From contig OZ024756.1 of assembly GCA_964016885.1 (NCBI GenBank), positions 12,276,001 through 12,340,000 on the forward strand: a stretch of 64,000 nucleotides of DNA, read 5' to 3'. Below are positions 21,035 to 64,000 of this stretch, piece after piece. The first letter of the stretch is position 1. Every line of letters begins with the position of its first letter. Made by a program: the position numbers and the translations under genes. The DNA comes from Eledone cirrhosa. Its lineage: Eukaryota. The notes beneath the pieces are model-generated. The model did no database searches and was not told where the DNA came from. It saw only the letters and a program-made list of their open reading frames with translations.

Positions 21035-21320
21035 TACAGTGTTTAGGCAACCACGTCACCTTTTTGTTCAACACTGACACAGGAACGATGTACTAGTTTC
21101 AAGCTTATTAGCTATCGTCAGCACCGTATACCTTTCTGCCAGATGGTTGAACGTCCGAAAGTATATACTTTCCTTATGAAAATTAACGGCTGAGCAGCCT
21201 AATTTGCATATCGAGTGAGTTCAGTCGGCCAGGCTGACGATAGCTAATAAGCTTGAAACTAGTACATCGTTCCTGTGTCAGTGTTGAACAAAAAGGTGAC
21301 GTGGTTGCCTAAACACTGTA
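21035..21320. repeat. 88-bp inverted repeat pair (21035-21122 / 21233-21320), each arm with an HHR core
   Basis: Arms are reverse complements by eye; 110-bp spacer. Confidence 0.9.
21085..21127 (-). ncRNA. Minimal type I hammerhead ribozyme
   Basis: ACGGTG-CTGACGA-T-AGCT-AATA-AGCT-T-GAAA-CTAG-TA/CATCGT: 6-bp stem I, 4-bp stem II, palindromic stem III, GUA site. Confidence 0.75.
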
Positions 21321-41700: not shown

Positions 41701-42115
41701 TTTCTTCATCCACGATTTACTTTTTATGCTGGATTCAGCACACAACTATAAAGACATACAGGAATACCGTTTGTAGTTCTATGTATAGCTATTTGAAATG
41801 CTTACTGCAATATATGTAATATAAATATTTCTTTCACGTAATTCAGTTTCCAACGACATTATAATTCATGCACTGTTTTTCTTCCTTCTGCTATTTATTG
41901 CTCATGAAATATACTATTGTTACACGTTTGGGTTCTGTTCTTTTTTTAACCCTGTTTCAGCAGATTTTTTTTTTTTTATCAAATACATTCTAGCTATGAT
42001 AAGCCCGTTGGACCTCCGTCGGGTTACCCGATGAGTGTTTCAGATTTTTGATAAAATAAACACCCTTTCCATGAAACTACCGAGTGGTCTTTTACCACAC
42101 ACACACACACACACA

Positions 42116-42169
42116 GGGCTTTCCTGATGATTTCCTACGAATGAAACAGTTATAGTCCTGTAGAAGCCT
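42116..42169 (+). ncRNA. Type I hammerhead ribozyme motif
   Basis: GGGCTTTC-CTGATGA-T-TTC-CTAC-GAA-T-GAAA-CAG-TTATAGTC-CTG-TA/GAAGCCT; stem I with one bulge, GUA site. Confidence 0.65.
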
Positions 42170-42789
42170 TTTCTATATTAAATTTTGTACATATTCTATG
42201 TACTGAGCCCCTTACTGACTGTGGTTAACTCCGACTGAACCCGAGACACACACTCACACACAGACACACAGTCCCCTCAATCTATCTTATTTCTCATTCT
42301 TTTTTCAGATGAAGGACTAGCGTCCGAAGTGTTAAGTCCCTCTTCCTGCTATATCAAACGTTAACCTAATATATCCCTTCCATATACTGTAACGATTGTG
42401 TTATTTCTGTTTACCTTTTACATACATGCAAACATACATACATACATACATACATACATAAAATATTATTTTCAATAGAGAATCATTGTAATCTATTGTA
42501 TAAACCAAATTGTTAGGAAGTTGCATAGAAAACAGTCTCGGCAGACAAATACAAAATAGATTTTGCGAAGCCAATTCGGCTTATGTTTCTTCTTGAAATA
42601 CATTAAAATGTAAAGTACAGATTTATAAATTTGAAATCACTGACTTATCTAATTAATCCCATTGAAATTCTATAGTCATTGAATATTGCATTCTACGCAA
42701 AAAAGTTGAAACAAAGTCTCTTTCTGTAAGCTAAAATTTGAAAATTTCATTGGAACAAAACATGATTAATATTTTATGTAGTAACCAAT

Positions 42790-49674: not shown

Positions 49675-52600
49675 GTGTGTGTTTATGTATGTATAAATAT
49701 ACTAAGAGGAGAACTATTCTTTCTAGACCACAGGCTGTGGTTTAGGAAGATTTGTTGTTTCTACAGTTAAGGCAGAGGTCACAAACCACAGGGCCGCGGA
49801 TCATTTGCTACTGAGCCACAAAGAAATAATAAGCCTGTCTAAAATTGTATAATTTAAAAAGATCTACAGTAGTCAAAAGATTTGAGGATATTTTACTTCA
49901 GACTTTTCTCTTATTCAAATGCTATTTCTACATTTCCTTGCTTCTACATATGTATACATAATTACATGTAAATCATGTACATATAAGCTGTTTTTACTTT
50001 TTAAGAACTAGGATATTTCCATTTTTATATTATCAAAAAATTATATTTTTAGTTCCCTTATGGTAAACCGTAGGGTGCAGTAAATCATACAAAAGATGCC
50101 TCCAGATCTGCAATGAAGGCAAAGTTATGTATATATTTGCCGAACCACATCTCTTAGCTTTCTCTCCATTTCAAAGAGTTCTGTAAAATAAATATTTATG
50201 TATATTGTACTAAATAGTTTCTCTTATATTCTCGGCTCCGTAATCATTGTAGAATTCTAAGACATTATGTAATGTTTTCTAGCATAGTTACATCCCTTTA
50301 CGATCTGAGTTCAAATCCCGCGGGGATTAACTTTGCCTTTCATCCTTACGGGGTCGATAAAATAAAGTACCAGTAATGCACTGAGATAGTTGCTGGCCAA
50401 ATGTAGAAACAGTTATTTCTATTATAAGTCGGAAAAGGAATTAAGTGTTTCAAATTAAATACAAAAAGATAAAGATAAAGGGAGATAACTCTAAAAAGCT
50501 TCCCTTAGAAACGCAAAATTCATTGAAAGTAAAATGCGTTAAGATTTGTTAAACTGTTAGTAAAAGAAGCCTTAATTCTTAAAAAATCTTTCCGAAACCA
50601 GTAAAATAAAATGGCTTATTTTCCAGGGGTCGTCTTATATGCCGGCAAATAAGGTAACATTAGACTTCTATAACAATCCCATCATGTCAACATTTGGAGC
50701 AAAAATTCACTTATCTGCCAACATTAAGAGTTAAACAGGTTTTCCAACTACCACTTTTTATATTGTAAAAGTATTTTAATACAATGAATTTAAGAAAGTT
50801 TCTCAGTAAAGCGGAATATAAGGACTTATACGTTAGAATAATTTTAGTAACTTACATAATTTTTTCTGATCAAGAAAGGTATGTCAGCATTTTGAACAAA
50901 TTTATATCCTGTTGTAAAACTGCCTCGTATTTTCTATTAAATGCCATAATGTAGAAAATCCAGTGGACAAATATAAAATGTGAACTTCAGAACTGCCCGA
51001 TAAACAAATTTTAGAAAAACGCTTCTTTATAAAAGCGTTAAAAAGGTAAAAAAAAAAATGCACTCTGAGTGACCAAACAATTACTTGGTCACTCAGAATA
51101 CATTAGGTTACATCAAATAAAAATCTTTTTTGATTTGCTTTGATAACAATGTTATTTTAGCGAAATAGATAAAAATACTGTTATAAAAATACATTTCAAC
51201 ATGTACTTTATTTATGTTAATGTAACAAAGGCCCTTTCTAAGTTTTAAAATTAACTATCATTGTTATACATCTTTAAAAACTGGTAATCAAGGATGTATT
51301 CTTCATTTTACAATTTCCGAAGCATATGGAAAAGTAAATTATTTAAGAGTATCTTAAAATAAAACATTTTGCTCAATTTGCAGACAAGACAATTTGCTGC
51401 AAAAGTTCTAGGTAAAATTTAGATTCATCCATTAAAAATATTATTTAAGGCAAGTCATTCATATTTTTATAATAATAAATCAGCAATTATCCCAGTAATT
51501 TATTTTATTAAACCCATTAAGGACCGTAACTTTATGCTGCAAAGCATGGTGTGCCATCCTTTTCTCATACTGCCAATATTCTCTTTAATAAAATTGTAAA
51601 TACAAAGTCAAATTTGTAACTGTAAAATAATTAGCAGCCCATTTAATAACATTTTTTATACCTAACATTAATAGTAAATTAAGAACCTTAGAAAAGTTCT
51701 TTGTTACATTAACATAAATAAAGTATATTATGTTTTGGTAAAATGTATTTAGATAGACATTATTTTTGTTCAAATAACATTGGTATCAAAGCAAATAAAA
51801 AAGAGTTTCTATTCGTGCTAAAAGAAATTTTTTGAAGGTTACTCAGAATAAATTTTTTTCTTTACCAGTTTTACTACTCTTTTACAAAGAAGCCTTCTTC
51901 TGAAATTTATGACTATAAAAAAACCTTAAAAATCTTTGACTTAAAAAAATGTAATTTACATCTTACGGCTTCCAAAGCAAACTTGTAACTGTGACAGCAA
52001 ATTTTTATTTTGAGAATATTTTAAAATATGTTTTGCTACTTTGAAAATTTACCATGGTTTAAACGCCGACTCATCTATACATGTTTTGTCTAAAATTGCC
52101 GTATATTGTCGACCCTTGTAAAATAAGCCGTTTTCTACATTACATCATTTAATAGATAGTAAGAGGCAGTTTTACAGTGTATTACCAGTGCTTTGCATTT
52201 GGCATATCAGCTAAACACTGGTTTCGGAGAGATTTTTTGTTTCAAATGCTGACATTTTTTATCAGAAAAAATTGTTTAGAAAGTTAACTAAATCTATTCT
52301 GGTGTATACAAGGATATTCTGTTAAATATATTTTATTAAAATTCTTTATATTTGGATTTCAAAGTTCTGGCATTTTTAACTTTAAATTAAGTATGAAAAT
52401 TGGGTTCTAAATTTTACCTTAGAACTTAGTTCAAATCGACATGTATGCCCCAGAAAATATGTTTTAGTCATTCAGATAAAAAATATCTTCAATTGCTTTG
52501 TATAACCTGGTATGCCAGGTTATACAAATGGAGCAAAATGTTATATTTTAAGATATTGTCAAAATATTAATTCTTTGAGATACAAATTTACTTTTTAAAC

Positions 52601-53058
52601 TTTAAAATCTGCAGCACATTTTTTAAAGATAAATCTAAAGCAATTGAAGATCTTTTTCATCTGAGTGACTAAAACATATTTTCTGGGAAAGTAAAAGTAA
52701 AAGATGGCCTGTAAAAATACCCATTTGTTGGTTAATAATTCAAATTATTATTTACAGTAAGATGACCCCTTTTATTCTCTACATTATGGGATCAAATAAA
52801 AAGTGAGAGTAGAGTGTACGAGTATTTGACAGACAGTTTTACATTTGATTGACTTTTACAAGTGCTCGATTTGCCATATTCATTTAACTAACAAATAGTT
52901 AGTCGCTCTACATGGCTGAATACAATAAATGTAATCTGAGTTTTTCGAATATTAATAATAATATGCGATTCATTTGCAATTATGCAAACATCCTCTTTTT
53001 AAGCCGTGTCAGTAGAATGAACCCATCATTCTTGCTCTTGTGTTGGCATGTAAACAGA

Positions 53059-53105
53059 ACTGCAGACACTAATGTTTCTGGGTGATTACCCTTCATCAGT
53101 ACAGT
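53059..53105 (-). ncRNA. Type I hammerhead ribozyme
   Basis: ACTGTA-CTGATGA-A-GGGT-AATC-ACCC-A-GAAA-CA-TTAG-TG-TC/TGCAGT: all three stems present, GUC site. Confidence 0.8.
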
Positions 53106-53608
53106 ATACTGATTACCTGCCAACTGTCAGAGCTAGAGAAAATATGACATTTTCTAAAACATACAGTGACTGGTCGGCCTAATTTGCATATTAACAGACC
53201 CACTGATCACAGTCCCCCCACCCACAAACACAGTAACTCCCTACACAATGATACACTCCCCCTCCCCGCACACACAGTAACCCCTACACAATGATACACC
53301 CTCCCACACACAGACATCTATGTTTGGATATATGTCTAACCCATGCTAGCGTGGAAGATAGACGTTAAACGAAAATAATGATGATGATGATGATGATGAT
53401 GATATAAATGTGGAAAGAAAAAATACATCTCATAGAGTTTATTTATTTATTTATTAATTCATTTGAAACTAATGATTCCGACCATCACAAGTCTCGGAGT
53501 TTCTAGCTAAATGTTATCCATCACAAGTCAAGGTGTCTCTTGCAATTCAGGGAGTCTTTTGCTAAATGTCATCCTTCAGGCAAAGGAAAGATAGTTTTGT
53601 GTTCTTGT

Positions 53609-53954: not shown

Positions 53955-54062
53955 TTATTTATGTTCTTCAAAATGTAAATTTAAAGAATCTGCATCTGGG
54001 AAAACATTGTTACACTGAGGGCACTGGTAGTGTTCCACAAATTCATGTTGCATTGCTTCCAT
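53955..54062 (-). CDS. Terminal coding exon (zinc finger) of NEMO/optineurin-like gene
   Basis: Acceptor ...ttgactttacag|ATG; translates MEAMQHEFVEHYQCPQCNNVFPDADSLNLHFEEHK*, resembling the NEMO C-terminal finger CPKC...PDMDTLQIH; phase 0 matches the upstream exon. Confidence 0.75.
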   Translation of the reverse strand: MEAMQHEFVEHYQCPQCNNVFPDADSLNLHFEEHK

Positions 54063-58633: not shown

Positions 58634-60392
58634 ATCATCATCATCATCATCATCATCAGGTTTGGACGGGGGTTTTCCCACTTGAGGCAAGAGTGGTTGT
58701 CTTGCTCGCATAGGACTGTCTGGCGGGTTTTCTACAGTTGGATGCCCTTCCTAACACCAACCACATTTACAGTGTGGGGCTGGGAGGTTTTTACCGTGTT
58801 GCCTACACGGCCACATTACAGCGTGGACTGTCTGGCGGGTTTTCTACAGCTGGATGCCCTTCCTAACACCAACCACATTTACAGTGTGGGGCTGGGAGGT
58901 TTTTACCGTGTTGCCTACACGGCCACATTTACAGCGTGGACTGTGTGTTTTTTGTCGTGACACCTACACGATCTCATTTGTTTCGGCCTGGATGTTGTGG
59001 GACCAACATAACTTTACATTGAAAGGGGCGGTGTGGGTGGGGTGGAGGTGGTGGGACGGGGGTGTGTTTTGATAGAGATGCCTACTGACTGTAGTAGGTT
59101 TTTACTTTGTATTTAGGTAAGGCGGGTCTTCTCTATTACTGAGTACCGCCAAAGGTCTCGGTCCAGTGACATTGTCTTGGAGAGGTGTAAGCGTGTGAGG
59201 TCGGAATTTATCAGCTCGTCCCATGTTTTTCTGGGTCTGCCTACTCCGTGGCTACCGTCTATCTTTATTGCCCTGCACTTTGTTATACAGCTGTCGTCTT
59301 TCATGCGCATCACGTGACCGTACCAACGTAGCCTTCTCTCAAGTAAACAACATCTGATCCCTCTTATTTCTAATTTTTTCCTTAGTTCGTTTATGCTTTG
59401 CCGTTCACGTATATTACTATTGCACATCCAGCGGAGCATGCAAGCTTCGTTCCTCTCTAGTCTGCGTATATCCTCTGCACACAATGCCCAGGTCTCACTG
59501 CCATGCAGCATTGCTGTTCGTATGCAGGCATCGTATAACCTGCCTTTCATTTTTAGGGAGAACCCTCTAGCGGCTAATAGTGGTATAAGCTCTCTGAACT
59601 TTTTCCATCCAGTTCTGACTCTAGCTACTGTACTTTCAGAGCACCCTCCCCCACTGCTGATTTTGTCACCCAGATAACGGAAGCTGTCCACTATTTCTAT
59701 AGAACCCTCTGCGCAGTTGAAGGAGCTAGTATTTTGTGGGCATTTGCTGCTACTTATTGCACCAGAGCACCGGCCACATGTAAAATCTATGTTCTTAGTT
59801 AGCTTACCTGTGATCCCACTACATCTTTTATGCACCCATACTTTGCATTTGGGACATAAAATGGAGTTTCTACCTACGCCTTTCCTACACACTGAGCATG
59901 GCCATTTCCCCGATGGGACCGCCGCCTTATTTTCTTTCCTACAAACTAGAACTTTAGTCTTAGCCAGGTTAATTTTAAGGCCTTTTGATTCTAGGCCGTG
60001 CTTCCACGTTTGGAATTTCTTCTCTAGTTCGGTCATTGATTCAGCTATGAGCGTTAGATCATCTGCGTATAGGAGTTCCCATGGGCAGCCGGTCTTGAAC
60101 TCCTCTGTTATAGCCTGAAGGGCAATAATAAATAGTAGGGGGCTAAGAACAGAGCCCTGATGGACACCAACTTTTACGCTAAACTCTTCACTATATTCGT
60201 TGTTAATTCTAACCTTACTGACTGTTTCTTTATACATGGCTTGTATAGCTCTCACAAGCCATTCGTCAACACCTAGTTTTCTAAGAGACCACCAGATAAT
60301 GGAACGGGGGACTCTGTCGAAGGCTTTCTCCAAGTCGACGAAAGCTAAGTATAGGGGTTTACTTTTAGCTAGGTACTTCTCCTGTAGTTGTC
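58634..60392 (-). mobile_element. 5'-truncated RTE-clade LINE (RT C-half 59113-60392 open, PHD-like insertion, 3' UTR with 112-bp duplication, (GAT)n tail)
   Basis: [53 protein letters not shown]. Confidence 0.93.
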
Positions 60393-60430
60393 TATATATA
60401 TATATATATATATACATACATATATATATG

Positions 60431-62065: not shown

Positions 62066-64000
62066 GGCAGGAGGAGAGTAACATGGTGGTGGAACAGTAA
62101 GGTGGAGGGGTCAATTAAGGCCAAAAAGCAGGCTTGGAAAGTGTGGCGGGATGGGGGAAGCAGAGAAGACTATCAAGTGGCCAGGAGGGAAGCTAGGAGA
62201 CAAGTGTACTTCGCAAGAAGGGAAGCAGAGGAAAGAAAGTTCAAGCATGTTCTACAACGTGAGGACCAAAAACGTGAGGTGTTCAGGATTGCTAGGCAAT
62301 GTGTCAAGGAAAACAGTGATATTGTCGGGGAGAAGTGTGTACTTAACGATGATGGCGTACTTGCCATCACCGACGCCGATAAGAAGGTAGCTTGGAAGTG
62401 TCACTATGAAAGGCTACTAAATGAGGAGAATAAATGGGAGAAAGACAGTCTCCCCCATATCGACCCGATAGAGGGACCAGCAGTGTTAGTCGAGGGTAGT
62501 ATAATAAGTAAGGCAATCAAAGATATGAAGACAGGCAAGGCGGCTGGGCCTTCGGAAATAGTTGCCAAGATGCTGAAGGCATCTGGTACGGTGGGACACA
62601 CCATGGTCACCCGGATAGTCAACCAAGTCATACAGAATGGGGTTGTTCCGAAGGACTGGCGCAGCAGCATTATCGTTAACTGTTATAAGGGTAAAGGAGA
62701 TGCCCTAGATAGGAGTAACTATAGAGGCATTAAATTAATCGACCAGGTCATGAAGGTCACGGAAAAAGTTATAGCGCAACTAATCAGAGAGCGAATTGAT
62801 CTAGCTGAAATGCAGTTCGGGTTTGTGTCAGGAAAAAGTAACACAGACGCTCTTTTCATTGTACGACAACTACAGGAGAAGTACCTAGCTAAAAGTAAAC
62901 CCCTATACTTAGCTTTCGTCGACTTGGAGAAGGCCTTCGACAGAGTCCCTCGTTCCATTATCTGGTGGGCTCTTAGAAAACTAGGTGTTGATGAATGGCT
63001 TGTGAGAGCTATACAAGCCATGTATAAAGAAACAGTCAGCAAGGTTAGAATTAACAACGAATATAGTGAAGAGTTTAGTGTAAAAGTTGGTGTTCATCAG
63101 GGCTCTGTTCTTAGCCCCCTACTATTTATTATTGCCCTCCAGGCTATAACAGTGGAGTTCAAGACCGGCTGCCCATGGGAACTCCTATACGCAGATGATC
63201 TAACGCTCATAGCTGAATCAATGGCCGAGCTAGAGAAGAAATTCCAAACATGGTAGCATGGCCTAGAATCAAAAGGCCTTAAAATTAACCTAGCTAAGAC
63301 TAAAGTTCTAGTTTGTAAGAAAGAAAATAAGGCGGCGGTCCCCTCCGGGAAGTGGCCATGCGCAGAGTGTAGGAAAGGCGTAGGTAGAAATTCCATTTTG
63401 TGTCCCAAATGCAAAGTTTGGGTGCATAAAATCTATGTTCTTAGTTAGGTAAGCTAACTAAGAACATAGATTTTACATGTGGCCGGTGTTCTGGGGAAAT
63501 AAGTAGCAGCAAGTGCCCACAAAATACTAGCTCTTTCAACTGCGCAGAGGGTTCTATAGAAATAGTGGACAGCTTCCGTTACCTGGGTGACAAAATCAGC
63601 AGTGGGGGAGGGTGCTCTGAAAGTACAGTAGCTAGAGTCAGAACTGGGTGGAAAAAGTTCAGAGAGCTTATACCACTATTAGCCGCTAAAGGGTTCTCCC
63701 TAAAAATGAAAGGCAGGCTGTACGATGCCTGCATACGAACAGCAATGTTGCATGGCAGTGAGACCTGGGCATTGTGTGCAGAGGATATACGCAGACTAGA
63801 GAGAAACGAAGCTTGCATGCTCCGCTGGATGTGTAATAGTAATATACGTGAACGACAAAGCATAAACGAACTAAGGAAAAAATTAGAAATAAGAGGGATC
63901 AGATGTTGTTTACTAGAGAGAAGGCTACATTGGTATGGTCACGTGATGCGCATGAAGGACGATAGCTGTATAACAAAGTGCAGGGCAATAAAGATAGACG
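62066..64000 (+). mobile_element. 5'-truncated RTE LINE copy (nonsense at 63254-56, frameshift at ~63432), continues beyond window
   Basis: TWWWN, KAAGP, YKGKGD, NYRGIKL, QFGF, YADD; from 62865 nearly identical to the reverse complement of the copy whose 5' end is at 60392. Confidence 0.93.

Follow-up and report, generated by a model that had tools for sequence, protein, structure and literature searches.

What kind of element carries a hammerhead ribozyme and, at a set distance upstream on the same strand, an octamer box like those of small nuclear RNA (snRNA) genes, and does it act on the gene beside it? The question arises at about 53 kb in a 64,000-nt stretch of the Eledone cirrhosa genome (hereafter the window), where a sequence-only reading had proposed a possibly undescribed family of short self-cleaving RNA units with their own octamer-containing promoter, one of which might cut the transcript of a NEMO-like gene. 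The evidence set out below makes it probable that the 53-kb cassette is a truncated, mutated non-LTR retrozyme with a likely snRNA-type promoter, of a kind whose multimeric RNAs are predicted to cut themselves and are then likely circularised and likely pasted into (TA)n by a Penelope-like element (PLE).

Results

The complete minus-strand hammerhead that had been described at 53059–53105 is indeed present, with all three helices, the core and the GUC triplet found on inspection of sequence and pairing. Read from 53105 to 53059, it is a type I motif in which CUGANGA, GAAA and UH surround three helices, helix I being open. Helix I pairs at 6 of 6 positions and is followed by CUGAUGA; helix II consists of 4 bp with a basal A.A mismatch and leads into GAAA; helix III has 3 bp closed by a UUAG loop; and the GUC triplet places the predicted cut between 53065 and 53064. 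Helix III is self-complementary, as in dimer-type hammerheads, with a predicted duplex energy of −8.8 kcal/mol. The active fold of the monomer is predicted to lie 6.2 kcal/mol above the minimum-free-energy fold, which sequesters CUGAUG, and this together with the mismatch in helix II weighs against self-cleavage. Around the ribozyme, an extended helix I is predicted at 53042–53124 (minus strand), and the region 53025–53135 folds at −40.4 kcal/mol (z −4.84), with 0 of 200 shuffles folding equally well. Three short hairpins are predicted 3' of the ribozyme at 52940–53032 (minus strand), and hairpins resembling them are visible by eye in the repeat families A and C described below.

Rfam gave no hammerhead family among 8 matches, nor among the 150 matches listed of 549, and its miRNA matches were rejected as microsatellite artefacts. 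A CAG/GTRAG sequence considered as a splice donor was also set aside, its bases being paired within the extended helix I of the predicted fold. Elsewhere in the window, a third hammerhead-like motif (CTGATGA ... GAAAC) lies on the plus strand at 42110–42180 without an octamer, and resembles repeats that form inverted pairs at three other loci (L097, L238 and L241).

Comparison with other copies sets the boundaries of the 53-kb element at 52868–53209 on the minus strand and identifies it as a solo, 5'-truncated copy of a retrozyme family, here called B, comprising 342 of 438 nt and differing from the majority of 30 aligned B copies at 17 positions in 340 columns. Its octamer box, ATGCAAAT at 53189–53182 within the 15-mer at 53177–53191 (minus strand), corresponds to the last of three 33-nt octamer repeats in the complete unit, of which the first two survive in this copy only as a remnant at 53209–53192. 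Downstream on the same strand follow a box at 53161–53175 resembling the proximal sequence element (PSE) of U1, U2 and U5 genes, with a C at 53173 where 28 of 30 B copies have T; an AT-rich palindrome at 53138–53154 whose TATA-like box is mutated in this copy; and, at the A of GGCA at 53118, a predicted transcription start placed by U1/U2 spacing. With no tandem partner, two octamers lost and the PSE and TATA boxes mutated, the copy is probably inert.

The cassette at 21 kb is a copy of a second family, A, at 21035–21232 (minus strand; octamer at 21209–21202, hammerhead core from 21121). A second family A copy, inverted and 5'-truncated, abuts it at 21233–21320 on the plus strand, forming 88-nt arms with 100% complementarity, and extends by eye to about 21490. 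The 15-mer said to be identical in the two cassettes does occur exactly at 21197 and 53177 and nowhere else in the window (with 2 mismatches allowed, shuffles average 0.47 matches); at the level of the families the match is 14 of 15, and the full identity is partly luck because the 53-kb copy has T at 53181, where C stands in 28 of 30 B copies. The spacing from 15-mer to core (CTGA) measured 78 nt at 53 kb and 76 nt at 21 kb, as had been reported. The similarity noted in the DNA between octamer and core also held, the alignment scoring 41 against 15.1 ± 6.8 for shuffles (0 of 1000 as high), which is above chance and shows the two cassettes to be homologous. That the stems differ in sequence yet still pair is correct for helices I and II; in helix III the two core-side pairs are identical in both cassettes.

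Two further repeats lie in the same window. A 51-nt inverted repeat (94%) at 52449–52687, enclosing a 14-bp perfect hairpin, is MITE-like and sits 180 nt beyond the 53-kb element. Near-identical LINE reverse-transcriptase fragments at 59318–60400 and 62100–63940, which we take to be RTE-like, are in opposite orientation with a microsatellite between them.

Across the 3.0-Gb genome the octamer–hammerhead pair is strongly enriched, with 18,337 matches against 0 in the control, those listed all belonging to family A. When a purine was required after the octamer, so that the majority forms of both A and B were left out, 766 matches against 4 remained, and 30 loci fetched from these include further diverged families. 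The family A ribozyme has 25,845 exact genome matches and that of family B 1,489; the best matches to family B other than itself are 88–92% identical (BLAST, 40 scored of 3,139 candidates). A tandem copy (L198) shows the full family B unit to be 438 nt long, with three 33-nt octamer repeats in which the octamer–PSE module is triplicated; tandem B units follow one another with nothing in between. Family A also occurs in tandem arrays, and units measure 438–484 nt. Families A and B are homologous by sequence comparison. Between families, helix I varies on both sides (its core-side pair being A-U, G-C or C-G), and spacers and stems diverge, while the octamer and the CAG at the PSE position are kept, at the same distance from each other. 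A further family, C (L084, L088 and L109), combines a B-like helix II with A-like flanks, a mixture that suggests recombination or descent between families. These are short non-coding units, present in tandem, with one hammerhead each and in high copy number, which is the pattern of non-LTR retrozymes.

Whether the block upstream of the hammerhead resembles a promoter was judged from the host's own snRNA genes. In the 9 distinct promoters of host U1 and U2 genes, a box of TCAGT type lies at −56 to −58, and in 8 of them TATA[TA] is matched at −28 to −38; host U6 and 7SK have TATA at −30. A PSE matrix built from the nine U1/U2 promoters, with leave-one-out scores of 7.8–15.4 and a background in the window of 6e-5 per position for scores of at least 10, placed its best site at −55/−56 in 8 of 8 U5 loci tested (scores 11.7–16.7; 8 of 15 loci fetched, two pairs of which share identical upstreams). 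On host U6 it scored about 0 in three promoter types, and on the single 7SK gene, on which the Pol III PSE position is based, 5.1 at −63. An octamer box was found in each of the three U6 promoter types (at −76, −77 and −78) and, with one mismatch, at −77 in one of 8 U6atac loci (L262); twelve further U6 matches and the other 7 U6atac loci, which had no proximal octamer box or looked like retrocopies, were left unused. No proximal octamer was seen in any host Pol II snRNA gene examined (U1, U2 and U5). In the upstream regions compared (L111, L112, L113, L262 and L156), the octamer of host U6 and U6atac lies far nearer than the vertebrate distal element, and these genes are devoid of the U1/U2/U5-type PSE, which 7SK shows weakly at −63.

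Against this reference, the retrozymes carry a host-matching PSE at one fixed offset from the octamer, strong in family B (11.0 in the 53-kb copy, 14.9 in copy L035) and weak in family A (only 1.3). Over 11 diverged representatives, hand-picked, chosen on the octamer and of common ancestry, so that conservation is being read rather than independent sampling, the mean score peaks at +14 from the octamer at 5.3 (4.6 without families A and B; individual scores −1.3 to 14.9); other offsets average −12.4 (sd 3.0), the next best being −2.4. The predicted start, which is the A of GGCA (53118 in the 53-kb copy, 21137 in the A copy) some 16–19 nt upstream of CUGA, lies 55 nt from the PSE in the 53-kb copy and 56 nt in family A, compared with 56–58 nt in host U1/U2, and is preceded by the U6/U6atac-type octamer box at 71–72 nt; in family B the cut site follows about 54 nt downstream of it. 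We suggest that the block is a hybrid snRNA-type promoter, in which an octamer of the U6 kind is combined with a PSE of the U1/U2/U5 kind, and we infer from the boxes that a POU factor and SNAPc would bind them. The copy numbers and the match to host snRNA promoters thus support the earlier proposal that short hammerhead units, each with an octamer-containing, promoter-like block, make up a family.

The position of copy ends gave a mixed picture of the predicted start, nominally positive in family B and negative in family A: 5' junctions fall there in 5 of 75 family B copies against 1.4 expected (p 0.015), a count that some 5-nt window reaches in 88% of random draws and one drawn from 'junctions' some of which are internal deletions of 33-nt repeats, and in 1 of 35 family A copies against 1.1. 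The whole upstream promoter region is present in many copies, the end of the reference being reached by 20 of 95 ribozymes in family B and by 53 of 92 in family A, which implies that the template was multimeric or circular.

A hybrid of this kind leaves two polymerases to be weighed. The U6-type octamer and the TATA position fit U6 and so make Pol III a candidate: the same retrozyme would then use a U6-type Pol III promoter, yielding a short RNA from GGCA to a T-run near the unit end, with unit-length templates arising from rarer read-through. Consistent with this, the proximal octamer box is confined, among host genes, to those of Pol III (U6 in three types, U6atac in one), with TATA at −30, family A has a TATA 30 nt before the predicted start, T6–T7 runs occur in the 3' part of both A and B units, and a TATA box is described as selecting Pol III in vertebrates (PMC9652321). 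The PSE speaks otherwise, however, the matrix scoring about 0 in host U6 and 11–15 in family B, at a PSE-to-start distance of 55–56 nt as in U1/U2 and not 63 nt as in 7SK; host U1 and U2 carry a TATA-like box too; and with runs of at least four T at 4–6 places in each A or B unit, an RNA ending at one of them would be without the promoter that the copies keep. From the U1/U2/U5-type PSE, and from T-runs expected to stop Pol III within one unit, we infer that the polymerase would be Pol II, and we regard the Pol III reading as unlikely.

It could also be that the boxes are inherited relics, or a part of a PLE terminal repeat, and that retrozyme RNA comes from read-through from host promoters, as has been proposed for animal retrozymes generally. 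Metazoan retrozymes seemingly lack promoters, according to a review (PMC7761336); the families share ancestry, by which the boxes could have been handed down; and the PSE match in family A is weak. Nevertheless, the octamer and the CAG at the PSE position have been retained, along with the distance between them, despite the divergence of spacers and stems, the octamer–PSE module has been triplicated in family B, and the PLE 3' repeat that was inspected contains no octamer or PSE boxes. We consider relics a rather improbable account, and a promoter that belongs to the retrozyme the better one.

How the units spread was surveyed at 59 family B loci (60 fetched, one duplicate removed). An adjacent inverted partial copy was present at 24 of these and more than one unit at 15, and a TA run marked the 3' end at 41, compared with 16% of random positions. 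Penelope-like elements are described as leaving inverted 5'-truncated copies and as having a (TA)n bias (Craig et al. 2021, PMC8557442), and the genome contains many elements with reverse transcriptase (RT) and GIY-YIG domains (150 scored of 10,596 candidates), with a minimal hammerhead in 5 of the 12 element 3' ends inspected. No terminal repeat shared with the retrozymes was found in 48 PLE loci (30 with GIY-YIG and 18 with long ORFs, drawn from those 150), near which retrozymes occur only as independent neighbouring insertions. The insertion pattern, together with the literature (PMC7229834; bioRxiv 10.64898/2026.07.22.740005), makes it likely that the retrozymes were moved by Penelope-like elements. 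That the 53-kb copy is itself an autonomous Penelope-like element was rejected, given that no ORF of at least 100 codons overlaps it and that the 438-nt tandem units abut.

Several observations accompany this survey. In a Neptune-like PLE family (L232, L233, L236, L242 and L243), the 3' repeat, about 350–410 nt past the ORF, contains both CCAAT-like boxes and a TATA-like one, together with a minimal hammerhead whose helix III is palindromic. At L266:1262-1630 (G000:C19:7531494 region) a retrocopy of U6atac with (CA)n(TA)n at its end is fused head to head to a truncated B copy in inverse orientation; this single case suggests that both RNAs are copied by one enzyme. On the 5' side of several further U6 and U6atac retrocopies there is also (TA)n.

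The neighbouring gene ends on the same strand as the 53-kb element. Its last coding exon (53955–54062, minus strand; stop at 53957–53955), identified by Pfam and a spliced contig, encodes a C2H2 zinc finger (PF18414, 27.5 bits, above cut-off), and the exon before it has weak NEMO matches (PF16516 below cut-off; PDB E 0.05–0.6), so that the name NEMO-like, or NEMO/optineurin-like, is plausible though not firm. In a contig from run X3, 54062 is spliced to 56693 across an interval with intron-type ends; the contig stops at 53806 in a high-copy repeat and is therefore uninformative on the 3' end of the gene. Between stop codon and element, four overlapping putative AATAAA signals lie in a simple repeat at 53438–53455 (minus strand), and the copy probably lies outside the NEMO-like mRNA.

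The sequence-only reading had rightly placed the ribozyme 850 nt past the stop (53955 to 53105) on the same strand, and had added that it could cut that transcript. On such an account the 53-kb copy would have been co-opted as a 3'-end or termination signal, and in its favour are the shared strand and short distance, the intact catalytic core and the splicing of the gene in run X3. The four AATAAA signals precede the ribozyme, however; the copy is one of thousands and differs at 17 positions from its family majority; it stands solo although its helix III is of the dimer type, and its active fold is disfavoured; and at most nascent read-through RNA would be cut. Cutting of the mature NEMO-like mRNA is thus unlikely, and we think it very improbable that the copy was co-opted at all.

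Discussion

The observations fit most readily a retrozyme that carries its own promoter. A POU factor and SNAPc would start transcription inside the unit, at the A of GGCA, and in tandem arrays the RNA would continue into the next units, giving multimers. Hammerheads would cut these mainly as dimers, through the self-complementary helix III, and RNA of unit length would be circularised. A PLE enzyme would then copy the circle or multimer into (TA)n, and, the template being circular or multimeric, the promoter upstream of the start would be copied along with the rest.

The 53-kb locus is by itself of little consequence, as the copy looks decayed. The wider interest is in how animal retrozymes come to be transcribed at high levels, for which the boxes, start and polymerase are here predicted from the host's own genes; if the model is true, it shows how an upstream promoter can be copied through retrotransposition. 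There is a fair chance, if somewhat short of a probable one, of a larger conclusion: an invertebrate retrozyme superfamily with a working hybrid promoter in its own RNA circle, by which a normally gene-external promoter retrotransposes and has seeded the genome with tens of thousands of POU and SNAPc modules, in convergence with newt satellite 2.

The suggestion that such units might be undescribed goes too far: the class is that of the non-LTR retrozymes (PMC7229834), and the internal snRNA promoter has a precedent in newt satellite 2 (PMC2220036). A literature search, with subscription journals, Repbase/Dfam and preprint supplements outside its scope, found no description of these families, nor of a PSE in invertebrate retrozymes. 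The metazoan non-LTR retrozymes described by Cervera and de la Pena (2020, PMC7229834) and by Li, Clavereau and Pollet (bioRxiv 10.64898/2026.07.22.740005) likewise have ORF-less, AT-rich units of a few hundred nt, both tandem and dispersed, with one type I hammerhead each, a short self-complementary helix III and co-occurring PLEs. The mismatch at the base of helix II recalls axolotl HHR_Amex2, and 8 of 9 Xenopus retrozymes are reported to have failed to cleave in vitro (bioRxiv 10.64898/2026.07.22.740005). At 438–484 nt, the present units are longer than the 170–400 nt of PMC7229834 and within the 51–972 nt of the bioRxiv report. What sets them apart is the conserved block resembling host snRNA promoters, as metazoan retrozymes, in the words of the review cited above (PMC7761336), seem to lack promoters.

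With Neptune-type PLEs (PMC8557442; Cervera and de la Pena 2014, PMC4209133) the retrozymes share 5' truncation, partial tandems, inverted 5'-truncated copies, (TA)n targets and a hammerhead within the repeat. They differ in that they have no ORF, that their hammerhead is canonical and not minimal, and that they show no homology to the PLE ends sampled.

The promoter of newt satellite 2 is said to consist of an octamer and a PSE. That satellite is a tandem repeat containing a hammerhead, and its transcription by Pol II is reported to be driven by an snRNA-type promoter within the repeat (PMC2220036); in both respects it parallels what is proposed here. It belongs to another animal lineage, however, and in the present retrozymes the octamer abuts the PSE at the position of the host U6/U6atac box, an arrangement that family B carries in triplicate.
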